From IMG/VR virus record IMGVR_UViG_3300042520_003271, positions 22,913 through 86,912 of that record: a stretch of 64,000 nucleotides of DNA; one strand, given 5' to 3'. The DNA comes from a virus. Made by a program: the position numbers and the translations under genes. This document shows, piece after piece, positions 22,693-41,925 of this stretch (positions within the stretch are counted from its first letter, which is position 1; each line of letters opens with the position of its first letter). The notes beneath the pieces were generated by a model. That model did not search any database and was not told the DNA's origin. It was given only the letters and a program-made list of their open reading frames with translations.

Positions 22693-23646
22693 TTAATCGT
22701 CATTAAGCTGCCCAAGCAGATTATCGATTTCCGTATCGGAAGTCGCACTGTTGGGTTTACTTATTTTTTCCCCTGCACCCTTTGCTGGTGCTGGCTTCGC
22801 TGGTGTTTTACCTTCCAACTCATCAACATCAAAACTAGTATCAGCCTTGTTGTTGCTAGGAGGGGTATATTCATCACCATTGATAACACTATTAAGGAGT
22901 GATTTAAGAGCATCAGCGTCAGGCATCTGGACCTTTTCCCAAAGATTTACTCTAAGCTTTAGAAGGGCCGCTAACCCTTTAGGATTAGGCTTACCGTCAG
23001 CATCGACGACCATTGGGCCTGATTTTTCTTTTCTAAAAGCGCTGGTAGCATAGCTATTATTCTTGCCCTGTTTAAGGACAGATAATTCAAATAAACTACC
23101 ATTGTTTTCATCAAAGAAAGCACCAAATGCTTCTGGCTCATCTGGGTCGCCACAATCCTCACGCTCTAGTGCCTGAGACCATAGCTTAAAACAGGTAGAG
23201 GTGGCATTAAAGAATTTTACCTTGCCTCTGAGCTCTTCTGGATTACCTTTCCAGTTGGTGAAGTAGACATTAACAAGATAATTCTCAGAAGGCATCCAAT
23301 CGGATCGGATCTTTCGTCTCTTGTCTTCGTCTTTCTCATCACGCATTTGATCAAACCCGAACTGGCAGACTGGGCATTTTTCAGCCGATCCTGCTGCTCT
23401 AGGGCATGGGTGGGGGCGATTATTTATCCAATGTGAACCATGTTTTATATAAAACAAGTCCATCGCTTTTTTCACCACACCGCTTTTAAGAGCATCACCT
23501 TCAAGAAGCGGCGGCAAAACATAGAATCTATATTTAATAGGCTCTGTCGTGCTTTCGTTCTTTTTGGGGCGGAATTCATCCGCATCCATTTGCTTTCCAG
23601 TCATCTGATTTAACTTTTTGCGCATTGCATCAATATCGTATGCCAT
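22693..23646 (-). CDS. Single-stranded DNA-binding protein, T4 gp32-like
   Basis: RFYVLPP, H..C...CPVC Zn site, SYATSAF, acidic tail EIDNLLGQLNDD. Confidence 0.85.
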   Translation of the reverse strand: MAYDIDAMRKKLNQMTGKQMDADEFRPKKNESTTEPIKYRFYVLPPLLEGDALKSGVVKKAMDLFYIKHGSHWINNRPHPCPRAAGSAEKCPVCQFGFDQMRDEKDEDKRRKIRSDWMPSENYLVNVYFTNWKGNPEELRGKVKFFNATSTCFKLWSQALEREDCGDPDEPEAFGAFFDENNGSLFELSVLKQGKNNSYATSAFRKEKSGPMVVDADGKPNPKGLAALLKLRVNLWEKVQMPDADALKSLLNSVINGDEYTPPSNNKADTSFDVDELEGKTPAKPAPAKGAGEKISKPNSATSDTEIDNLLGQLNDD

Positions 23647-24173: not shown

Positions 24174-24435
24174 CGTTGAATAATTCCTTGTTAAAACCTA
24201 CCGTCTTATTCTTTGGTAATACATCATCACTATTAGATGATTTATCTCCAGACCAATTACCCCTACTAAATGATTTATTAGTAATTTCGTTAACGATACT
24301 ATTCCTGATCGTTTTCCTTATATGTTCTTTGCGCCCTTCGTCGAAGCGGCGTTGTGCCTCGATTTTACGTTTTGCTCGCAAAAGAGACTTTTCCTTAGCT
24401 CTCTGACGTATCTTCTGCAGTTTCTTGTTGTTCAT
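24154..24435 (-). CDS. Hypothetical basic protein
   Basis: Arg/Lys-rich ORF; start probably MNNKK after GAGGG (start approximate). Confidence 0.45.
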   Translation of the reverse strand: MNNKKLQKIRQRAKEKSLLRAKRKIEAQRRFDEGRKEHIRKTIRNSIVNEITNKSFSRGNWSGDKSSNSDDVLPKNKTVGFNKELFNDGKREP

Positions 24436-25594
24436 GTTCCCTCTGTATATTACTGTATTTATATTCTCGCCATTTCTTACCAATGCCGTATCTTAAAGGA
24501 AAATAAATATCTCTATCTATCAGCCCATCAAGCGGTTTCGACATAATCGATTTTACACTATTTATCATATATTGTATACTGCTCCGGTCGTTTTCACAAG
24601 ACATTACTAAAGAATCATGGATATCGCATATAATATGTCTTGGAAATAAAGCATTAACTTTTGTAATAGTGTTTTGCATAGCATGGGCTATAGACCCTTG
24701 TAAAACACCATTTATGCCTGATAATATTGTCTTTTCCTTTGGTATAACAAATTTACGGCCTAATAAAGTTTCTAAAGGTACATCCTCAGTCAATTTATGC
24801 GCACATTCAATAAGCCAAGTCTTTAGGTCGCCATAACATATGTCAAATATGCCACTATCGAAATTAAGAGAATTTATCGCTTTAAGAAGAGCTATCTTAC
24901 TGTCTTTGCGGTCTGTAAACATATTACCGGCACGATCAAAAAGATACTCGTAGGGATCACCATGCCTGAAAGCAGATTCCAATTCATCGTCTCCGGAAAC
25001 TACCGATGCGATTCTAAGATCGGCGCAGATCCAGTCGAAATGCAACAATACTTTATCCTCAAAACTCCCGTCCCTTGTGATGAAATCAGGCATGTTATAG
25101 CCTTGAATATTAAAACCTGTGCATTTGCTTCTGCCAGTAAAAGTGTCATGCGACCAAGATGATTTCAGTGGTGTATAATTTACATAAATTGGTAAATCTG
25201 AAAGCTTATCATAAACGCAACCAGCGTCGAATAATAGTTTTTTATATGGTTCTTGAACAGAAGCATCTGTGGATGCTAAAAATTCATCGAGGGCACTTGT
25301 TTCATGAATTATTTGGTTATGATCGAAGATGTTGTCGGCGATAGCTCTATTGCTATAACCCATAGCGGCGATCAGTGATGCGCGATCGTTTGTGACTATC
25401 GCGCATCTGGTGCTAACCGCATGATCGAATAATGTTTTAATCTTGGACTGGTCTATTCTAATATCACTTATGCATTTTGTGTTGCTATTATCAAAAAGGA
25501 TTTGTTTATATATCTTTTGGTCGCGTTTTATACCTATGATGGCTGGATATGCGACTTGTCTTCCTCTTTTGATAGCGAATAGAATTGGCTTCAT
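24395..25594 (-). CDS. Minimal family A DNA polymerase (polymerase domain only)
   Basis: TFTGR, NIQ, motif A FDWICADLR, motif B RKDSK, TLLGR, N.VLQGS.A, motif C IHDSL. Confidence 0.8.
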   Translation of the reverse strand: MKPILFAIKRGRQVAYPAIIGIKRDQKIYKQILFDNSNTKCISDIRIDQSKIKTLFDHAVSTRCAIVTNDRASLIAAMGYSNRAIADNIFDHNQIIHETSALDEFLASTDASVQEPYKKLLFDAGCVYDKLSDLPIYVNYTPLKSSWSHDTFTGRSKCTGFNIQGYNMPDFITRDGSFEDKVLLHFDWICADLRIASVVSGDDELESAFRHGDPYEYLFDRAGNMFTDRKDSKIALLKAINSLNFDSGIFDICYGDLKTWLIECAHKLTEDVPLETLLGRKFVIPKEKTILSGINGVLQGSIAHAMQNTITKVNALFPRHIICDIHDSLVMSCENDRSSIQYMINSVKSIMSKPLDGLIDRDIYFPLRYGIGKKWREYKYSNIQREHEQQETAEDTSES

Positions 25595-32371: not shown

Positions 32372-33297
32372 TTTTTAAATCCGGTGTCAAGGGTATTTAA
32401 TAATCTTAAAAAACAACTCGCAACATCTAAACAAGGGTCCCATATAGCATAGCTACCAATCGGATGTATGTTCTCTTTTTTGAATATGCTTATGTCGATA
32501 GAATTCCCAAGTATTAAAGCCTGTTTAACCATAGTACCGTCTATTATTTCGAATTTTTTTAGAAAATTCTGCATATATATACCAGGGTGTAACATGTCTT
32601 TCAGAAAATAGAATAGATAACGACTCGGCGCGATGTTTGATACTTTAAAAAACTCGATATTACTATCTGCTACCATGATCTGGTTCGCGCCCTCGAAATC
32701 TAATTCTTCGGTATACAAATGCACATAATGCATGTCTTTTGATTTTAGCAAGCTGGTACGTCCTGTAAGACCATAAAGCACATCAGCAGGGATGGTGCTA
32801 ATAATGTTATCATATGGTTTTCGTTCATCGCCAAAGTAAATGTATCCATCTCTGATCGAAGTCGGTAGGCCAGCGGTAGCATTTTGCTTTAGCATGGGTA
32901 AGTATAGATCTAATAATGCTTTATATATTTCACTTATTCTCACATTATTATAAATCTGAAAGATGTCTTTTTGTAAGAAATATGGTATGCTTTGACCTGG
33001 TACATCATTACCATACACTTTATCTAACCAATCATTTATTACTATCTTGTCGCCATTTGTCGACAATATTCCATTCATCGACCATGATCTTTTATAAAAT
33101 ATCGAATTTACTAACTTTCCTGGCAATAATTTATCTATAATATAGTCTAAACGCTCATGCCTGCATAAGAAGTTATCATCCAATGGTGGATTGCTTGAGA
33201 AAAATCTGCTCTTATAAAAAGGTACTACTTGCCAATCAGCCCCAAGAATGTGTCGAGCAGTTAGACCAACTATGCCAGACCCTAAGATGTAATTCAT
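32368..33297 (-). CDS. FAD-dependent oxidoreductase (UDP-galactopyranose mutase/PPO-like fold)
   Basis: ILGSGIVGL Rossmann motif, YDNIISTIP, IGSYAIW. Confidence 0.6.
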   Translation of the reverse strand: MNYILGSGIVGLTARHILGADWQVVPFYKSRFFSSNPPLDDNFLCRHERLDYIIDKLLPGKLVNSIFYKRSWSMNGILSTNGDKIVINDWLDKVYGNDVPGQSIPYFLQKDIFQIYNNVRISEIYKALLDLYLPMLKQNATAGLPTSIRDGYIYFGDERKPYDNIISTIPADVLYGLTGRTSLLKSKDMHYVHLYTEELDFEGANQIMVADSNIEFFKVSNIAPSRYLFYFLKDMLHPGIYMQNFLKKFEIIDGTMVKQALILGNSIDISIFKKENIHPIGSYAIWDPCLDVASCFLRLLNTLDTGFKK

Positions 33298-33301
33298 ATG
33301 C

Positions 33302-33826
33302 TTATTCTAATAGGTCATCGTCATTGAATGGTTCACTAGCTAATTTCATGATGTTGTCTTCATTCGAGACAACATCATTAGTCTTTGCTTTAATATCTAC
33401 CTTACATAGTTTCTTGGGCGTTACTTTTTTATCAGCCTTAATAGTTCCAGTCTTTACCGGTGTACTAGCTATTTGTGGATATAAGAAGGTATCTAGACTT
33501 AGATCTTCAAGAAATGGATTAAGGAATGGGTCTTCATAATGTATATTATCGGTCTGTATTTCATCTCTTGTTTTTCTTATACCTTTAAAGCATTCACAAT
33601 AATAGTAACCATTAAGGTCATACATATCTAATATTTCGACCAAAGAGGCGCAATTGGGGCATGTAAGAACAGCCTTCGTAGCTCTAACTTGATCGCCAAG
33701 CGCGCTCTTCTTGGTGTGTTGATCGACCATATAAGAATTCCATTCTGTCGGCCTCGCATGCGTTAAGACATTATTCAATAGTATTTCATGTAAATCGTAT
33801 GGGTTAGCTGGTAACATTCCAATCAC
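33302..33826 (-). CDS. Hypothetical zinc-ribbon protein
   Basis: CPNC...CEC. Confidence 0.55.
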   Translation of the reverse strand: MIGMLPANPYDLHEILLNNVLTHARPTEWNSYMVDQHTKKSALGDQVRATKAVLTCPNCASLVEILDMYDLNGYYYCECFKGIRKTRDEIQTDNIHYEDPFLNPFLEDLSLDTFLYPQIASTPVKTGTIKADKKVTPKKLCKVDIKAKTNDVVSNEDNIMKLASEPFNDDDLLE

Positions 33827-34349
33827 TTCCTTCTTGATGTTTATACTTTTCTTTTCTGACAGCGAAGCTATTCAAGATCTCTGGTGTTAAAAAGATCTCT
33901 ATTAACTTTTTATCAGTATGTACTTCAGCTTTCCTAACATATTTCACAGACCCGCACTTACATACTGTTGTCGGTGAGTGGGCTTGAAGACCGCACTGTT
34001 CGCAAGTGAATGGCACACCGGTTTGCTTTACAGTAGCACCAGTCACAGTAGCATAATAATATGTTTTTAATAGCATAAGGTCTATACCAGATAAATCACA
34101 ATATCTAGATCCTGTCTTTTTACTTGTATTTTGGTTAATTTCTACTATTTTGTCTTGAAGTTTTTCATAGCATAAGCTGCAATAATCGAACGTGTCGACC
34201 ACTGGTGACGAATCTAAATCTCGTAATGTTAAATGCTGCCCGAATTTCGATTTAGCGCTTCTAAAATCTATCGAATAGTATGTAAAATCTTCGTGGAACT
34301 GTAGCCCGCAACCGTCGCATTTAATCCCGTCTTTCGTCGGCAGCTGCAT
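33804..34349 (-). CDS. Hypothetical multi-zinc-finger protein
   Basis: CDGC, CSLC, CEQC, CKC motifs. Confidence 0.6.
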   Translation of the reverse strand: MQLPTKDGIKCDGCGLQFHEDFTYYSIDFRSAKSKFGQHLTLRDLDSSPVVDTFDYCSLCYEKLQDKIVEINQNTSKKTGSRYCDLSGIDLMLLKTYYYATVTGATVKQTGVPFTCEQCGLQAHSPTTVCKCGSVKYVRKAEVHTDKKLIEIFLTPEILNSFAVRKEKYKHQEGSDWNVTS

Positions 34350-37044
34350 TAATTTGCTTTCTCTTCAGGATGTTGATTGAGGTATTGCGCCGTAAAGAAA
34401 AACTATTTCTCTCACCATCATAATCGACAATTACTCTAATTCCAGCGCCAATAACTAATTTAGTCTTGTCTAAACCCGATAATTCTTTAGACCACACCAT
34501 AATGCTTGTCTTTAACATACCATCAGACGCAGATATCTTGGCGTATGGTTTATTATTCTTTGAAGTAGCGTATTCTATATTTACAATTATACCTTCGATG
34601 GCTATGATGTCTTGGCCAGATTTCGCATTAGATTTTGCGGCAGCGATTGTAAGGTCACCTCTACTGTAAAACAGCCCTAAAGGTGAATCGATATAATATC
34701 CCAAATATTCGTTCTGAAATTCTAATCTTTCCTCGAAACTGAAATCATCGCCGATAGCGCCAAGAACGGCACAAAAATCAATGATTGGCTCTGGTTTCCA
34801 ATTCAGTAATTTTTTGGGTATTGCCTTTTTCTTAGGATAGATTATTCTGTATTCGCTGACGAGTCTTTCTCTCTCAGCCGCAATAGAGCCCTCATTCCAT
34901 CCTTGTTTAGAAATAATGAGGTGGGAGATGAAGTTTTTAGTCTCCTTTGCTTCTGGCCCATTGCCATACTTCGTTTGATAATAAACCCACAAAGCCTTGC
35001 TATTATTGTGTCTTTCAAGATTTCTGAATGCCCCAAGCTTAATTAACCGTTCTAATACCGTTTTAGATTTTATTCCGGTTTTTAAAATAAAATCATCCAT
35101 GCTTGCATATTTGTGTGTAGTGATTAGACATTCAGCTATCTTTTCACCAAATCCCTTTATACTGCTGACACCAACAAATATCGTGTTATCTTTTACTATG
35201 AATTTTAATGACAAATTATTGATATCGATGGCTTCAAACCGTAACGGGTCATCTGATCTGCTTGAACCGAGTTTTGTTATCGCTGTTGGCTTCCATTCTT
35301 CAGATCTCGCTACACCCATGTAACGCACGAGCTTGTCCGGATGACAATCATTCATGACAGATGCCCAAAACTCTGGAGCAAAATGCGCCTTTAAAAATAA
35401 GCATCGAAGAGTTACTAAACAATAAGCGACAGAATGTGATTTATTAAATGCGTAGCGGCCGAAAGACACCATTTTAGACCATATAGCACGTGCTTCGTCT
35501 TCGCCGATGGTTTTTGATGCGCCGGCCACCCACTTCTGCTCAACGCTTCTAAGTTTATGTGTCCACTTTTTAGCAACGGCCTTTCTTGTCTCTTGTGCTT
35601 CTGGTGCTGTAAAACCCGCAAGCCTTTGCCATAATTGTGTCAATTGCTCTTGGTAAACTAATTGCCCATATGTTTCTTTAAGAATATTATAGACTTCTGG
35701 GTGCATGCGCTTCTTCCAAGCCATAGTGGGATCGTCGCGGTTAGCCATGGTTTCTGGTAACGCGGCGATCGGCCCTGGATGGCCCATGGCATTTATTAAC
35801 ATTAAATCTTCGAAATTTCTAACACCGTGAGCTAGTAGGGACATGGCCAATTCGGTATCGAATTGGAAGATGCCATCGCATTTTTGAGTATTTGCTAGCT
35901 TTAGAGCACCATCATCATCGAGACTTATAATATGCTTAACACCGGAAGCATCGATAAAAAAGCCGGCTTTACGTTGTTTAGGATCGATGTCTTCCCAGCC
36001 CGATAGATTCTCGCCAAAATTGATGTCACGATTAAACTTGACCATCTCACAACATCTAAAAATATATTCTAAGGTTTTTAATCCTAGCCAATCCCATTTT
36101 ACATAGCCAAATTTAGACAATTGTGTGCTTCTGCCCTCTGTCCACATGCTAACCCAGTAGCCTTTATTACTACTTTTGGCCATGGGTATATTACCAAACA
36201 GTGCTCTGTCTGTTATTAATAATGCGCCAGCGTGCATGCCCATGTTTCTTATTCTGCCTACTAATTTTATCGCTGATGCTATGATTTCTGGGTTTTTAGT
36301 AGCAAAATCTTTAAGAACTGGTAGTTCTTCGATAAGTTGGCCGATAGTCGGAGCGTCTGTGACGGATTGCTTACACGATGGGCATACAGCTTCGCCGTGG
36401 ATAGTGCCACACTCGGTCTCAACGCCTTCCTTTAGAAATTTACCTCTGCAGACTGATATGCCATTTTCTGGTAAATCATCAGCGTGCTCTGGTAATTGTG
36501 TGGTCGTTCTTTCAGCATCAAATCTAGACATTATTCCGAGAGCTACAGAGACATCAATTATTGCAGATTTAAATTTATAAGTTTGCCATGTGCCAACGCT
36601 GCAAACAGAACCATAACTGTCTTCCGATTTTTGGCCATATTTAGAGATCACGTATTCTTTTAAATGATCTCTGGCGCCAGGCAAGCAATCTATATCGATA
36701 TCCGGCATGTCAGAATCTCTGTAGATTCCTGTCGGCATTTTACCGTTGTTTTTATCTTTATATTTAAGAACATCATTAGCAGATATGCTAGTCATTATAT
36801 CGCTATGATCTGTAGAAATCGGATCTTCAGCTACTATATTTAAAAGATATGGCAGTAATAAACGATTTGGATTTTTTTCAAAAGATGCGCCTTCGGTCAC
36901 TAATTCTAGCCAATAGCGTTCTGCTCCTTGCTTCTCTATTTCATAAATTTCGAATTTGAGTCTGTCTTTATATATTTGTGGTTTGTCTAAAACAAATTCA
37001 CCAGCCTTCTCGACGATTTCTTCCCAAGATTTAATGTTTCGCAT
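34321..37044 (-). CDS. dnaE: DNA polymerase III alpha subunit, C-terminal part (palm aspartates, thumb, fingers, HhH, OB)
   Basis: MPDIDID, GMHAGA, KWDWLGLKTL, GIFQF, ETYGQLVYQEQ, YAFNKSHSVAY, IKGFG, C-terminal OB fold; no PHP domain. Confidence 0.93.
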   Translation of the reverse strand: MRNIKSWEEIVEKAGEFVLDKPQIYKDRLKFEIYEIEKQGAERYWLELVTEGASFEKNPNRLLLPYLLNIVAEDPISTDHSDIMTSISANDVLKYKDKNNGKMPTGIYRDSDMPDIDIDCLPGARDHLKEYVISKYGQKSEDSYGSVCSVGTWQTYKFKSAIIDVSVALGIMSRFDAERTTTQLPEHADDLPENGISVCRGKFLKEGVETECGTIHGEAVCPSCKQSVTDAPTIGQLIEELPVLKDFATKNPEIIASAIKLVGRIRNMGMHAGALLITDRALFGNIPMAKSSNKGYWVSMWTEGRSTQLSKFGYVKWDWLGLKTLEYIFRCCEMVKFNRDINFGENLSGWEDIDPKQRKAGFFIDASGVKHIISLDDDGALKLANTQKCDGIFQFDTELAMSLLAHGVRNFEDLMLINAMGHPGPIAALPETMANRDDPTMAWKKRMHPEVYNILKETYGQLVYQEQLTQLWQRLAGFTAPEAQETRKAVAKKWTHKLRSVEQKWVAGASKTIGEDEARAIWSKMVSFGRYAFNKSHSVAYCLVTLRCLFLKAHFAPEFWASVMNDCHPDKLVRYMGVARSEEWKPTAITKLGSSRSDDPLRFEAIDINNLSLKFIVKDNTIFVGVSSIKGFGEKIAECLITTHKYASMDDFILKTGIKSKTVLERLIKLGAFRNLERHNNSKALWVYYQTKYGNGPEAKETKNFISHLIISKQGWNEGSIAAERERLVSEYRIIYPKKKAIPKKLLNWKPEPIIDFCAVLGAIGDDFSFEERLEFQNEYLGYYIDSPLGLFYSRGDLTIAAAKSNAKSGQDIIAIEGIIVNIEYATSKNNKPYAKISASDGMLKTSIMVWSKELSGLDKTKLVIGAGIRVIVDYDGERNSFSLRRNTSINILKRKQINAAADERRD

Positions 37045-37375
37045 TTAAATGGTTCGTAAGCCCAGAAGTAGAGGTGAAGCTTTTACCGCATTTTTTGCAG
37101 CTTAGCTTCTTTATATCATTTTCAATACATTTAGATTCTTCAGCTGACGGGACAGAATCAAAATCGACGACAAAAGGTCTTTTAATGGTCATTTTCTTGG
37201 TTTTTTCATCTTGATGCGTAATGGCATAGTATAAATACTGTCCCTTAGAACGTATACCTTTAATCGTTTTAAGTCTTTCTTCGTTAGATTTTAATCTTAC
37301 TATATCAACAATATTTTCAGTGTGCGCTTCCATAATGATGAAAGCATATTTATCGTACTCACCTTTATGGTCCAT
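37031..37375 (-). CDS. Protein with a C-terminal classical C2H2 zinc finger
   Basis: CKKCGKSFTSTSGLTNHLNAKH; GAGG RBS. Confidence 0.75.
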   Translation of the reverse strand: MDHKGEYDKYAFIIMEAHTENIVDIVRLKSNEERLKTIKGIRSKGQYLYYAITHQDEKTKKMTIKRPFVVDFDSVPSAEESKCIENDIKKLSCKKCGKSFTSTSGLTNHLNAKH

Positions 37376-37431
37376 AATTTCCTCATAATATATAGAAGAT
37401 CTTAACTACGCATTCTACTAGTAAAATTATT

Positions 37432-37869
37432 TTAATCGATTAGTACGGTGCCGGTATCGTGATATTCTGATTTGGACATCAATAAATATTTTTTGATTTT
37501 ATTAACATATTCATTGCCCAAAGCTAGCATGTTAGCATCAAAAAATACACTGTTATGACGTTGGCATATTTTAATAATACGTTTTTTTAAATCGTCGAAA
37601 TAGAGTTTCTTATCGTCTGACGCGCCATATAAATCATTCGATTCAAACCCCAACATACTGATTCTGATCGTCTGATTGATATCTTTAATCGCTGATAGGC
37701 CGACGAAGATAGCTTGATACTTATATATAGTGTCATCAGTCATTTTTAATTTAAATGCGATATCGCGCCGTTGTGTCTTATTTTTTTTACCATTCTTCTT
37801 AATTAATGTAACGACAATCTTAGAATTAATTTTAGAATTATCTAATCTGTTTATTTGCATTTCTAACAT
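37432..37869 (-). CDS. Hypothetical protein with weak RNase H-fold resemblance
   Basis: 145 aa; YQAIFVGLSAI..IRI resembles an RNase H helix-strand unit, but catalytic acids are not evident. Confidence 0.45.
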   Translation of the reverse strand: MLEMQINRLDNSKINSKIVVTLIKKNGKKNKTQRRDIAFKLKMTDDTIYKYQAIFVGLSAIKDINQTIRISMLGFESNDLYGASDDKKLYFDDLKKRIIKICQRHNSVFFDANMLALGNEYVNKIKKYLLMSKSEYHDTGTVLID

Positions 37870-38294
37870 ATCTGGTTCCCATTTACATCTTTTATTTTAA
37901 TTTCTTCAGAAAGACCGCAGAAGTTAAATAGCGTCATCGCTTTAGCGACCTCAACTACAGCTTTGTCATATTTATCTTCTAGCTTAGTAACACCTACTGA
38001 CTTAACATCTATCGTATGAGAATTAAGAGCATTTCTGGTATTAAGCATTGCTGATCCTAGTACTTTAGCTGAATCGGCGGCCTCTTTTTCTAGACGATCG
38101 ATGGTCTCGACAATACTTGAAATGATATTGTTTATAATGTTTATTAGCAAATCGAAAGATTCTTTTTCTATTCTGACTTTATCGTCATCTACAAGAATAT
38201 CGATGAATTTTAGTGAAAAGCAACATAATGTTTCTGTTGGTTTTTGCATGACTTTTAAATGTGTTTTTAAAGCGTGCAATAAATACTTCTGCAA
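37863..38294 (-). CDS. Hypothetical helical protein
   Basis: 143 aa, TTG start after AAAGGAG. Confidence 0.55.
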   Translation of the reverse strand: MQKYLLHALKTHLKVMQKPTETLCCFSLKFIDILVDDDKVRIEKESFDLLINIINNIISSIVETIDRLEKEAADSAKVLGSAMLNTRNALNSHTIDVKSVGVTKLEDKYDKAVVEVAKAMTLFNFCGLSEEIKIKDVNGNQIC

Positions 38295-38295
38295 A

Positions 38296-39696
38296 CTAAT
38301 CTCCTTTTGTCATCTTAACATTAAGCATATAACCACCGCGGCTCGGTGCTAAAAACCTATCAAACGAAAGACCCCAAGAAAGTGGGTCAACAGATGTAAT
38401 ATTTAATAAGTAGCATATCAAAGAACCACCAGCGCTGCCTCTAGCAGTGAAAGGCCAGCCTTGTTCTTTGCCATATTCAATAATATTTTTAGTAATCAGG
38501 AAGTAACTAGCAAAACCTTTTTCTATGAAGCGATTTAATTCGATCTTGGCTTGGTCTAAGTACGTGACTTCTCGTCCATCGATCAAGTATTTAAGTTCGT
38601 TTTTATGGAGTCCTAGCGATATAAGCTTCGATGCGACCAAACGCCTTAATTCATTATCAGCGTCTACGATGGTCGGTATTTTAGGGTCAGTATCGAATTC
38701 GATATTTTCGCATTTGTCGGCTATTTCAAGCGTATGGTCACACATTAATTCGAATTCTCTAGCAGTATATCCTTTTGAATATTCAGTACCATTATATCTA
38801 CTCCACAGTTCGCTTCGCTGTTTAAAGTATTGCTCGTCACTGTTCGTGTGGAATAAATCCGGAGAGTCAACAGTTACGTCTTGAGCTATCGCCATCATGA
38901 TCTTCTGGATTTGAAAATCTTTTCTTTCCATGTAGTGCGAATCGTTTGCCAACACAGTCTTAATCTTGAAATGCTCGGCTAACATGATCGATGTCTGAAA
39001 TACAAACATATCGCCTTCTACCCCAGGCATTTGTAGTTCTATGTAATAGTCCTCTCCGAACGCTTCTTTGAATTTTTTGATGTTGGCGATAGCGTTTTCT
39101 AGCCTTTCTTTTCGGCTAATTTCTCTGATAATATCGCCGGCTTTATTAACTATCGATTTAGTACGCAATTCATGACTTACTGGACCGTTAAGACAACCTG
39201 ATAGAATGATAAGTCCTTCGCGATATTCGCATAGCTTCTCGAACCATATACGATTATACTGTTTGATAGATACGCCAAAAAGACCTGTCTCGTATGCTTG
39301 AGTAGTTAACTTTAGGAGATTCTCGAATCCGGTCTTGTTTTTGCAAATTACTGTAAGATGTCTATTTCTTATAATTCTTCCTGCTAACTCTGGATTCTCT
39401 TTTCTCCATTCTTGCGATCTAACATTTATTCCACTCGCTAAAAGCTCTTGTCTCTTTAGTTCGAAATCATTATAGTATATCTCACACCCAGGGATGTATT
39501 TGACACCATATTGTTTAAAAGCAGCGTAGGCTTCAGGAACACTGGCCATATGACCGTGTTCGGTAATAGCCATCGCTTGATACTTCCTTTTATAACAAGC
39601 TTCGGCATATTGGGCCGGAGAGGCTACTCCATCGAGCATACTATAAAGTGTGTGTGAGTGAAGATGAACAAAATCTGATGAGCCTTGATATTCCAT
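38296..39696 (-). CDS. dnaE: DNA polymerase III alpha subunit, N-terminal part (PHP domain plus first palm segment)
   Basis: FVHLHSHTLYSMLDG, AITEHG, PGCE, LSGC, NDSHY, ELNRFIEKGFASYFLI, RGSAGGSL, FDRFLAPSR, then stop. Confidence 0.93.
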   Translation of the reverse strand: MEYQGSSDFVHLHSHTLYSMLDGVASPAQYAEACYKRKYQAMAITEHGHMASVPEAYAAFKQYGVKYIPGCEIYYNDFELKRQELLASGINVRSQEWRKENPELAGRIIRNRHLTVICKNKTGFENLLKLTTQAYETGLFGVSIKQYNRIWFEKLCEYREGLIILSGCLNGPVSHELRTKSIVNKAGDIIREISRKERLENAIANIKKFKEAFGEDYYIELQMPGVEGDMFVFQTSIMLAEHFKIKTVLANDSHYMERKDFQIQKIMMAIAQDVTVDSPDLFHTNSDEQYFKQRSELWSRYNGTEYSKGYTAREFELMCDHTLEIADKCENIEFDTDPKIPTIVDADNELRRLVASKLISLGLHKNELKYLIDGREVTYLDQAKIELNRFIEKGFASYFLITKNIIEYGKEQGWPFTARGSAGGSLICYLLNITSVDPLSWGLSFDRFLAPSRGGYMLNVKMTKGD

Positions 39697-39709
39697 ATTA
39701 TCTCCTATA

Positions 39710-40420
39710 CTATGAAGATAATACAGTTTCTAATCCATTTTTCTTACCTTTTGGGGCTTTGATTTTCTCGAAAGATTGGATAATGTTAGGGTATCTAATG
39801 TTAGAAGTGTAGACTTCCTGTGTATTAAGAAACATGCTGGCAGAATTTATAAGGTCGTCGGGCGTTGCCATCTTTATGTCTACATGTTGCTCTTTTAACC
39901 GACCAAGAAAGCTATCAATAACTCTAGTCTCAGTAGGGTTCAATATAGCGATCCGGTCTCTAAGTCTTCTCAGAAAAAGCTCTAGACCTAATTCACCATT
40001 TTTTTGGCGGTGTGCTTCAAAATTATCTCTAAGATTAGGTAAAACTACTCTGTCGATTGTTTCTAAATTAAGTAATTCAACGTCATAGATTTTTAATAAT
40101 CCGCCAATCAGATCATTTTTAAATAGATGAGTGACAAATTCTGATAAAAGAATGGCAAGGTCCTTTATTACTATCGATTCACGTCCTTGCAGGAAAAAAT
40201 TAACAAAAAGCTTTAGATTTAAAATACCATGAGCCCATAAGGTGTTTTTAAATAACCAATCATCGATATTCTGGATCGCAAGCCTAGCTCCTGATTGATC
40301 ATGTACTGTAAAATTATCCATGTCAATGATATATATAGTCTCTTTTATTAGAATAGCTACTAAACTACCATCGACATGGATTATATTCATTATTCGAACA
40401 TCTCTGCTGCTGTCAAGCAC
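39710..40420 (-). CDS. Hypothetical protein
   Basis: 236-aa ORF; start possibly MNIIH. Confidence 0.55.
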   Translation of the reverse strand: MLDSSRDVRIMNIIHVDGSLVAILIKETIYIIDMDNFTVHDQSGARLAIQNIDDWLFKNTLWAHGILNLKLFVNFFLQGRESIVIKDLAILLSEFVTHLFKNDLIGGLLKIYDVELLNLETIDRVVLPNLRDNFEAHRQKNGELGLELFLRRLRDRIAILNPTETRVIDSFLGRLKEQHVDIKMATPDDLINSASMFLNTQEVYTSNIRYPNIIQSFEKIKAPKGKKNGLETVLSS

Positions 40421-41925
40421 CCAGCTGCAACTGTAAAGAGTGGTTTTTCAGCCACAGATACTTTATTTAAAACAAAAGGCAATTCATTATTATTAAATAT
40501 TAAAGCTACGCGCTCAGCAAAGCCTTTCGGACTGCTAGTACCGCCAGCCATATAGACATTAATGCCATTTTCGATTCTTGCCTGCGCCTCATTTTCCTTA
40601 AAACCGGCGACGATACCAGACACCACTTGATTAATAAGCACATCGTAGTGCAGCGATATATCTAACTGAAGCCTGTCGGCATACTGTATGCCGGGGGTAA
40701 GATCAATGTCCATTTTCACTTTAGATACTGTTGTGGGAGTTTCTTTACTGCTCTTCTTCATGCTCTTCATGGCATGTGCATCATAACCATGCCTTATCGC
40801 TACATTCTCGTCTATCCAGTCTCCGGCCCCAACCCAGCAGAAGCTATAAACTTCTAAACCATACTTTACATATGTCACGGTAACTGTACCAGCCCCCCAA
40901 CTGATGCCGATACCAGAGCCATCTGGACTCTGGTTTAGAACTATGGCATGGCTTTCTTTTATTTTTTGAAGCTTTATAGCACTCTGAGAATTATAGCTTT
41001 TAAGTATAATATCGATAACTCTCTCATGATATTCGATATTATTTGTTTTATTTAAAGCTGGAGCTGTTGTACAATAACACAATGTTAGATTGTTATCGAA
41101 CTTACCAACATCTCTCTCTGCTGTTTCTAATATTCCATGTATTATACTGCTTAACACAGTCATCGACATTTCGTCTGGGGTGATGCCGCCTTCCGCCATC
41201 GGTCTTTTCATCGTGTCATTTTTAGAATAAGCTAATTCTTCGGCGTCTCGTCCCAATACGATTAGCTGATTCGATTCTTCATGTTTAAAATAATGCGCAG
41301 GTCTGCTGGTGCCATCGGAACGGACTTTAGTCGGATCTTTAAGCATGTTTTCTATAAATGATGTAGCTCTTTCGAAAGGCCAAAACCCATTTATCTCAGA
41401 AATATAATTTATATCTCCGTTCTTGTTCTTAAAAGAAGCAACGATAGTTTTTGTGCCAATATCAAGCCCAAGATGCGGCATAGTAGGTTTCCTTTCGAGA
41501 GAAATTAGATCGCCCATTCTATATACTTCACCATCTTTAGGTAAAGATTTTAACCTAGGTTGGGTCTCAAATATCCCCAACACTAAGTCTTCTTTTGTCT
41601 TAACAGCTTCGTAATATTTCTTATCATATATAGTTTTATGATATTCGGCATATTTTTCATCTGGAATTATTTCTCCAGAATATAATTGTCTTATTACTTC
41701 TGGCTTTTCTATTAGCTCTTTTTGCTGTGGTTTAGGTATAATATTTTCTATTTTTTGGAGTCTTTCTTCTATTTTAATTGGCGCTATAGCAGGTATGACA
41801 TGAACAGGCGCCTTAATAATTAGCTCTGGAACTTTTGGTTTCTGAGTAATCAATTTTGAATCATTAACAAGCTTTTTTATAGAAAAATCATGGATCATTT
41901 TGATCGGTTTTATTCCCAAAACCAC
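40390..41925 (-). CDS. Actin-fold ATPase (MreB/ParM/MamK-like)
   Basis: Phosphate-1 LGLDIGTKT, connect-1 ESHAIV, phosphate-2 ISWGAGTVTV, adenosine MAGGTS, connect-2 AAGCL; start uncertain (41925, 41898 or 41481). Confidence 0.85.
   Translation of the reverse strand: MVLGIKPIKMIHDFSIKKLVNDSKLITQKPKVPELIIKAPVHVIPAIAPIKIEERLQKIENIIPKPQQKELIEKPEVIRQLYSGEIIPDEKYAEYHKTIYDKKYYEAVKTKEDLVLGIFETQPRLKSLPKDGEVYRMGDLISLERKPTMPHLGLDIGTKTIVASFKNKNGDINYISEINGFWPFERATSFIENMLKDPTKVRSDGTSRPAHYFKHEESNQLIVLGRDAEELAYSKNDTMKRPMAEGGITPDEMSMTVLSSIIHGILETAERDVGKFDNNLTLCYCTTAPALNKTNNIEYHERVIDIILKSYNSQSAIKLQKIKESHAIVLNQSPDGSGIGISWGAGTVTVTYVKYGLEVYSFCWVGAGDWIDENVAIRHGYDAHAMKSMKKSSKETPTTVSKVKMDIDLTPGIQYADRLQLDISLHYDVLINQVVSGIVAGFKENEAQARIENGINVYMAGGTSSPKGFAERVALIFNNNELPFVLNKVSVAEKPLFTVAAGCLTAAEMFE

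Follow-up and report, generated by a model that had tools for sequence, protein, structure and literature searches.

A dnaE gene of an uncultured huge phage is divided through its catalytic domain into two conserved genes with no detectable intein

The DNA analysed here, a stretch of 64,000 nucleotides (nt) referred to below as the window, corresponds to positions 22,913 to 86,912 of IMG/VR virus record IMGVR_UViG_3300042520_003271 and carries dnaE, the gene for a C-family DNA polymerase, in two pieces. Both pieces lie on the minus strand, as do all features of the locus described below, and are 1251 nt apart: an open reading frame (ORF) at 38296-39696 (466 amino acids, aa), designated dnaE-N or the N-half, and a second at 34321-37044 (907 aa), designated dnaE-C or the C-half. 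The gap between them is tiled by three ORFs at 37863-38294 (143 aa), 37432-37869 (145 aa) and 37031-37375 (114 aa). The two halves were found to divide the 260 positions of Pfam family PF07733 exactly at model position 98/99, with 17-98 matched by the N-half and 99-260 by the C-half, such that RGSxxGS and FxRFLxxSR fall on one side of the break and MPDIDID on the other. These complementary matches bore out the original prediction, made from the sequence alone, that dnaE is split into two genes through its catalytic domain. No other match to PF07733 was detected in the whole 86.9-kb parent record, which has a CheckV completeness of 24%.

Both pieces were found to be real, co-oriented genes under selection, as had been proposed. 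An independent contig of 4413 nt from another lake-water run covers 35213-39625, spans both junctions and differs by one base; no joints or indels were seen at the split locus in 4 runs, and the stretch or part of it was present in 20 runs, all of DNA. The same gene order was observed in 7/7 related IMG/VR loci. When the ratio of nonsynonymous to synonymous substitution rates (dN/dS) was computed against L004, a 95% relative (dS 0.67-1.29 over the five ORFs), all five ORFs were under purifying selection (dN/dS 0.013-0.145), with values of 0.013 for the N-half and 0.028 for the C-half (dS 0.78-1.08 for these two). Fragmented dnaE genes arising from frameshifts are mentioned in the literature (PMC3919608), and the split might accordingly be read as a decaying or misassembled gene, either a pseudogene in pieces or a chimeric contig. 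We give this explanation practically no credence: nothing was found in its support and it is already refuted. Misassembly was rejected on the basis of the junction-spanning contig from another run and the layout shared by relatives, which is repeated in many independent metagenomes, and a pseudogene was rejected on the basis of the low dN/dS values of both halves and the catalytic residues, all of which are invariant.

The N-half consists of a PHP domain, the nucleoside triphosphate (NTP)-binding part of the palm and a short tail. Its PHP domain (39031-39666; residues 11-222 by Pfam, E 2e-35) has all nine metal ligands, of which H13, H15, D22, H47, E72, H113, D252 and H254 are invariant and C168 is at least 90% conserved in 48 aligned N-part rows. 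Because the nine ligands fit the HHDHEH[C/H]DH pattern of 'active' PHP domains (PMC12926913), the domain looks active as judged by its residues. The NTP-binding palm subdomain (38338-38580; residues 373-453) bears RGSAGGS and FDRFLAPSR and accounts for positions 17-98 of PF07733. Within it, R419, G420, S421, G424, S425, R447, F448 and R453 are invariant in the same 48 rows, and the FxRF..SR motif was present in 116 of the best 120 clusters of N-half-like proteins (see below). The last 100 codons of the gene have a dN/dS of 0.011 against L004, and the C-terminal end of the ORF reads FDRFLAPSRGGYMLNVKMTKGD.

The C-half comprises a degenerate head, the catalytic palm, thumb, fingers, a helix-hairpin-helix (HhH) domain and a C-terminal region. 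Pfam matched it to PF07733 (99-260), DNA_pol3_finger (E 1.8e-27) and HHH_6 (E 6.6e-12), and its profile aligned with residues 315-912 of Escherichia coli alpha and 428-950 of Thermus aquaticus (Taq) alpha. The catalytic strand MPDIDID is encoded at 36688-36708 (residues 113-119; DMPDIDID, 112-119), and the third catalytic Asp, D318, at 36091-36093 in KWDWLGL (residues 316-322). P114, D115, D117, D119 and D318 were invariant in 60 C-half rows; D115, D117 and D318 line up with the matching blocks of the E. coli and Taq enzymes, which for D318 is KfDfLGL. The metal ligands of the Pol-beta-like palm of E. coli DnaE are D401, D403 and D555 (PMC3919608), as the original prediction had stated; for the binding of deoxynucleoside triphosphate (dNTP) that it also ascribed to G363, S364, R390 and R396, no mention was found in the two articles searched for it. 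A C-terminal OB-fold region was represented by a weak HMMER stretch only (Taq 997-1108, i-Evalue 0.038; E. coli 941-1053, i-Evalue 0.3). Taken across the pair, the three metal-binding Asp, PHP, fingers and HhH of a DnaE-type enzyme are all present. What departs from DnaE is that the catalytic elements are not on one polypeptide: the NTP-binding motifs RGSxxGS and FxRFLxxSR are confined to the N-half and the three catalytic Asp to the C-half, and this two-ORF arrangement is kept in relatives. The C-half palm also has an inserted Cys/His cluster (C199, C212, H216, C221 and C224; window 36373-36450, residues 199-224) that is invariant in nine close C-halves and is not found in E. coli or Taq alpha; it may be a zinc-binding insertion.

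The proposal that the normally contiguous motif is cut in half held insofar as PF07733 is divided, but the cut is not clean, as the two halves overlap in homology. The head of the C-half (36715-37044; residues 1-110) represents the NTP-binding subdomain in decayed form, with neither the RGS loop nor FxRFLxPxR; its first ~110 residues correspond to a degenerate copy of the last ~95 residues of the N-half. The head is conserved in all relatives and is colinear with the N-half end. Profiles that stop short of the DxD strand were built for heads (96 sequences), intact DnaE (72 segments) and N-half tails (126) and compared by hhalign. By this approach, heads matched the pre-DxD segment of intact DnaE with Prob 98.9 (E 2.8e-17, 77 columns) and the N-half tails with Prob 96.6 (E 6.9e-10, 74 columns). 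The similarity of head to tail reached only E 0.03 by pairwise BLASTP and a first, shallow hhalign comparison, and was clear only with the deeper profiles. In a HMMER profile of the 60 C-halves, the head paired with E. coli alpha 315-405, leaving E. coli residues 355-359 and 361-365, including R362-G363-S364, unmatched. In three relatives, Pfam matched the head itself to PF07733, beginning at model position 4 (P0056), 15 (P0091) or 21 (P0025). E32 and N58 of the head are invariant in the 60 rows, the NTP-side loop is absent from C-half heads in both of the clades described below, and the first 112 codons of the C-half have a dN/dS of 0.064 against L004.

A reciprocal remnant was found on the opposite side of the break. 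The 13-residue tail of the N-half, GGYMLNVKMTKGD (38299-38337), is a conserved pseudo-copy of the catalytic DxD strand and pairs by MAFFT with YPDIDLDF of intact DnaE, with the hydrophobic positions kept and the Asp replaced. The motif F[DN]RF[LM]..SRGG followed by an h-x-h-x-h strand was present in 116/120 of the best N-half clusters, in which the proteins end 9-25 residues after SR; among these motif-bearing clusters the GG and following Leu of the tail were retained in 116/116 and the N in 98/116. In the second, far clade the tail at the equivalent place reads RGG[KR]x[MI][KS]LxF. Strong constraint thus acts on both the working and the fossil copies. Since the C-half head duplicates the N-half end and the N-half terminates in a pseudo-DxD strand, the arrangement is that of a partial duplication with complementary loss and not of a clean cut.

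The possibility that the two products are joined into one ordinary DnaE chain, whether through intron splicing, through splicing in trans or by means of a split intein of atypical kind, was considered in light of this overlap. A 13-aa N-tail and a 110-aa C-head are similar in size to the parts of atypical split inteins. Relatives also carry inteins at other sites of dnaE: a complete intein that includes a LAGLIDADG domain is present in protein P0008, and proteins P0056, P0091 and P0025 end in N-intein pieces. In another phage (L087:6083-13965), a split intein interrupts dnaE within the RG|S loop: the N piece ends in a Cys-led intein part, the C piece begins with a part ending in HN|S, and a 332-aa ORF lies in between. 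Dassa et al. 2009 (PMC2677866) described 'fractured' DnaE genes that combine split inteins with a free-standing gene for an endonuclease, and such loci likewise lend the idea of joining some support. By contrast, at the break studied here no intein family was detected at E<=0.01 in either half (Pfam), nor did the initial 115 residues of four C-halves give one at E<=10, and the head is homologous to the DnaE palm and not to a HINT domain. The terminal residues also differ from those of inteins: the conserved SR is followed by G where an intein junction would have Cys, Ser or Thr, and on the C side DMPD is preceded by D-S, with no His-Asn ahead of the Ser-Asp that adjoins MPDID. A split intein at the break was rejected on these grounds. 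A group I or group II intron was likewise rejected, judged on DNA contigs only, as no Rfam ribozyme match was obtained at E<=1 over 33000-41000 and the gap is filled with ORFs under purifying selection (dN/dS 0.025-0.145) that leave one spacer of 56 nt. Joined halves would, in addition, carry the duplicated segment twice. We therefore regard joining as very improbable, in agreement with the earlier reading of the locus as free of both intein and intron.

The gap genes and the two halves have a tight, operon-like layout in which starts are overlapping and coupled to Shine-Dalgarno sequences. The first gap gene, orfA143 (37863-38294; 143 aa, dN/dS 0.145), begins with TTG, 1 nt beyond the stop codon of the N-half and 6 nt downstream of AAGGAG, and the last 14 nt of the third, orfC114 (37031-37375; 114 aa, dN/dS 0.025), overlap the ATG start of the C-half; the 56-nt spacer is the sole one within the gap. 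Promoter-like sites (27 vs 32.6 expected) and terminator-like sites (4 vs 6.3 expected) made for an uninformative scan. orfA143 gave no matches in Pfam, PHROGs, a PDB profile search or Atlas, and orfC114 encodes a small C2H2 zinc-finger protein (zf-C2H2, E 1.3e-5). Each belongs to a family (A and C, respectively) with members in the window, L005, L007, L009, L013 and L014. The middle gene, orfB145 (37432-37869; 145 aa, dN/dS 0.052), is variable and was seen only in 95% relatives. The gap ORFs had been described as unrelated, which did not hold: two of the three recur in relatives and all are conserved (dN/dS 0.025-0.145). Six relatives have a small RNase HI-like ORF in the dnaE gap (PDB profile E 2.4e-5; L007:4224-4730, L009:4956-5411, L012:8573-9004, L013:7712-8176, L016:8492-8941 and L017:8578-8973) that was not detectable in the window; orfB145 was examined as an RNase H-like candidate and rejected, its similarity to this ORF being not significant (E 0.08). 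No homing endonuclease of HNH, GIY-YIG or LAGLIDADG type was detected in the three gap ORFs by Pfam and PHROGs, and a genes-in-pieces arrangement of the homing-endonuclease kind was rejected, the C2H2 zinc finger of orfC114 being the only domain found. Recurring gap genes that include no homing endonuclease indicate that the break is an old, stable feature of the operon and not a fresh selfish insertion.

Split phage dnaE genes of this type were found to be abundant in metagenomes. A word-based search returned N-half-like proteins of similar length in 638 clusters (90% identity) at E<=1e-10; the best 120 of these were all 446-502 aa and lay on contigs of up to 438 kb. Both pieces are annotated in the clusters as 'DNA polymerase III subunit alpha'. 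A HMMER search with nine C-halves gave 19,962 matches at E<=1e-3, from which the best 150, together with 6 others, were classed. Among these 156 proteins, 89 have 55-135 residues ahead of the DxD motif, 55 are C-terminal pieces in which it is lacking, 6 have the motif at 136-329 and only 6 are seemingly intact. Of 87 IMG/VR loci, 10 were split as in the window with the N-half 0.9-2.9 kb upstream and 66 had intact genes (<=35% N-terminal identity to the intact comparison query P0147), the remainder being of other break types (3), cut by the contig end (5) or without a motif ORF (3). No close C-half relative was found in cultured GenBank phages or in 185,579 species genomes, in which the best match was intact DnaE at 29-30% identity; in this cultured and cellular search the N-half was likewise most similar to intact genes (32% identity).

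The same breakpoint was present in relatives of two deep clades, on huge-phage contigs of up to 572 kb, in support of the original reading. In the near clade, N-half and C-half occurred together in 10/10 loci having upstream sequence. The second, far clade has heads with N-E-N-N and C-halves of 25-28% identity to that of the window; 62/72 of its loci were of the short-head type, with an N-half within 8 kb in 34/62. A search of whole records, made for 15 of the remaining 28, revealed an N-half elsewhere in 13/15, either of 452-490 aa or of 869/878 aa with an insertion; the distance from N-half to C-half was ~9-15 kb in the three far-clade records with both positions readable. The two exceptions were G006, in which the C-half lies where the contig begins, and G005. 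In the far clade, N-halves terminate at the equivalent place, with ...FSRF[LM]SxARGG and a short amphipathic strand. The long N-halves of G003 (C1:187419-189980; 869 aa) and G007 (C1:33123-35657; 878 aa) have a ~400-aa insertion just before the RGS loop that is probably an intein. A different intein-free split of dnaE, at the PHP/palm border, was observed at L066:6792-11859 (also in L063), where a 407-aa PHP protein and two small ORFs accompany a 1034-aa polymerase with its own RGS loop.

A quick IQ-TREE phylogeny of 68 rows, built from 520 residues that follow the DxD motif, placed all 26 split rows in one clade (SH-aLRT 97). This clade also holds two intact genes, L203 and L011, the latter from a 595-kb uncultured phage (GenBank LR756511.1); the two sit inside the far clade, separated by branches with values of 96-99. 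A topology constrained to unite the split rows as a single clade was rejected by an approximately unbiased (AU) test (p-AU 0.0089) run with LG+G4, a simpler model, on 26 of 68 rows and for a group named after the tree had been seen; the 42 rows dropped were all 14 cellular rows, 19/25 intact rows, L066, L087, P0146 and 6 split rows. In a tree of the N-part (without L193, L202, L210, L011 and L018), L203 grouped with far-clade N-halves with a support of 100. Both intact genes have an N-half-type loop and an FSRFLSK.RK segment that run directly into D[YW]PDVDVDF, with neither head nor tail. Their direct use of this loop indicates that the N-half copy stayed competent as the canonical one. Based on these sequences, L011 and L203 are candidate re-fusions, and one ancient split followed by one later re-fusion by deletion would be the most parsimonious history; several independent splits at one site are possible.

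From the residues retained and lost in each half, the pair is probably a replicase that requires both chains, each supplying part of the active site in trans. In this model, an uncultured freshwater huge phage would make its replicative C-family polymerase as two subunits from one operon. Subunit N would provide the PHP exonuclease, with its full ligand set, and a unit of helix, strand and glycine loop; in ordinary DnaE, this unit binds the incoming nucleotide. Subunit C would contribute the metal-binding Asp triad together with the thumb, fingers and domains that bind DNA. The pair of genes may have arisen once, long ago, by partial duplication of ~100 codons around the break, after which genes would have come to sit between the two copies, the C copy would have lost the RGS loop and RFLxPxR motif and the N copy the Asp of the DxD strand. 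The two chains are predicted to form a stable heterodimer that sets the N-half loop against the C-half DxD strand in a composite active site, with the fossil head and tail serving perhaps as folding or docking elements, and the nested intact genes would be re-fusions that removed the head, tail and intervening DNA. We infer a composite site because the NTP-side residues of the N-half stay invariant while the C-half copy has lost them in both clades, and because the fused descendant uses the N-half copy. The broader view, that a large and deep huge-phage lineage builds its nucleotidyltransferase site in trans, keeps the fossils as docking or folding pieces and can reverse the split, with L011 and L203 regaining a single chain, has in our estimate about an even chance of being correct. 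Control of the replicase at the level of assembly is speculation.

Several observations, along with the limits of the AU test noted above, weigh against a site completed in trans, and most of these observations favour its main rival. In relatives, the palm of the C-half is PF07733-like over its full length, and the invariant N58 lies at the edge of the missing glycine loop, such that the C-half might bind dNTP alone. If the head occupied its canonical place, it would clash with the N-half copy. In the L066 lineage, PHP alone is separated, the polymerase having an RGS loop of its own, which indicates that PHP can be a detachable unit. The 430-kb record G005 (that of L195), with an estimated completeness of 97%, has a C-half-type gene (C1:236536-237033) and gave no PHP or N-half match at E<=1. 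These points would be accounted for if the C-half were a self-sufficient, PHP-less polymerase in which an altered head (N-x-N) binds the nucleotide, and the N-half a separate proofreading or pyrophosphatase subunit whose palm fragment docks it or has another role. Such a palm would be formally complete, as the heads of relatives align as the start of PF07733, and the invariance of E32 and N58 in 60 rows, as well as the retention of all PHP ligands in the N-half, are consistent with this alternative. By contrast, the head is without 10 residues that include the RGS loop and is without FxRFLxPxR, and it would be difficult to account for the invariance of the RGS and FxRFLxxSR motifs across hundreds of N-half clusters if these motifs had no function. 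Intact relatives inside the clade, moreover, use the N-half-type loop and have no head, and C-halves are accompanied by N-halves in nearly all records searched. On balance, we consider a self-sufficient C-half with a detachable proofreader unlikely, though far from negligible.

Among known systems, the nearest is the minimal Pol III alpha in split form that Iyer et al. 2021 (PMC7824862) described for group 2.2 jumbo phages, in which an N-terminal NTP-binding protein and a C-terminal Mg/DNA-binding protein are predicted to reconstitute one enzyme. As in the present pair, the break lies between the NTP-binding and Mg-binding subdomains and is intein-free; the separation of some far-clade halves by 9-15 kb is a further likeness to the minimal Pol III genes. 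By contrast, the minimal Pol III has little beyond the nucleotidyltransferase/template-binding core, with other Pol III domains absent, and occurs beside a family B polymerase, whereas the present pair amounts to a full-size DnaE with PHP, fingers and HhH, a distinction drawn from the text description and not from a comparison of sequences. Overlapping decayed copies, as found here, are not mentioned for the minimal Pol III in the parts of that article drawn upon, and its Figure 3b and tables may bear on this point.

The fractured DnaE genes (PMC2677866) resemble the present locus in that dnaE occurs as two genes, which in those loci are neighbours with an ORF between, and the intein breaks of the phage relatives P0056, P0091, P0025 and L087 match them. 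The split-intein DnaE of cyanobacteria and of the fractured loci, however, has HINT halves, Cys1, a terminal Asn and a ligated single chain; here, no intein is detectable, the break is elsewhere and the flanks are DnaE-derived. Intein-free pieces are known from T4-like phages (PMC2988022), in which nrdA of Aeh1 is split by mobE and gene 43 of phage 25 is split into 43A and 43B; the reassembled Aeh1 NrdA retains full function, and the two gene 43 products purify together and have polymerase activity. These genes-in-pieces are similar in that an essential enzyme is split in a functionally critical region. They differ in that they hold or adjoin a homing endonuclease gene and, in the sections of that source used here, no duplicated segment is mentioned, whereas the present locus has no endonuclease found and ~100 codons represented in both halves. 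For phage PhiKZ, the B-family DNAP-N and DNAP-C form a stable 1:1 complex that works with an RNase H-clamp partner, according to a preprint (PMC13648687). Both PhiKZ and the present phage have a polymerase encoded as two polypeptides in a huge phage, and the RNase H-domain partner recalls the RNase HI-like gap ORF of relatives that is undetectable in the window, but the polymerase family and fold differ. The existence of intein-free phage enzymes that reassemble (NrdA, gp43A/B and PhiKZ DNAP) was counted in favour of two cooperating chains. Of two surveys of bacterial C-family polymerases, one covers intein splits and frameshift fragments only (PMC3919608) and the other makes no mention of gene splits (PMC12926913), as far as the portions consulted of each extend. 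A full-size, intein-free DnaE split with overlapping copies was not found described in the literature, with supplements and figures outside the scope of this search.

If the active site is completed in trans, the pair would represent a natural two-piece C-family replicase, and its pieces could be used to examine how the glycine loop, DxD strand and PHP proofreader cooperate, with the nested intact relatives serving as fused controls provided by nature. The pair would then also offer a clear example from nature of complementary loss following partial duplication inside a single catalytic fold, that is, of sub-domain duplication, degeneration and complementation within an active site.

The dnaE locus is neighboured by genes for DnaB-like, RecA and gp32-like proteins, a short PolA-like ORF and an actin-like 'volactin', and is thus part of the replication module of a large phage. 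The actin-fold protein (511 aa; window 40390-41925) is encoded two genes upstream of dnaE-N and matched Pfam Volactin with E 8.7e-38. In the same module, a 399-aa ORF at 24395-25594 was found to correspond to the C-terminal part only of the family A polymerase domain (E 2.1e-9). Elsewhere, two related loci from different metagenomes (L016:9438-9480 and L015:1640-1680) share the same 2-nt insert in the codons for the catalytic PDIDxD motif (…CCG GAT ATA TAG AT…); in both, the head and the DxD strand are also set apart by additional sequence. Deletion of the TA restores LPDIDID, and the insert could represent a site of +2 ribosomal hopping or frameshifting at AUA_UAG.

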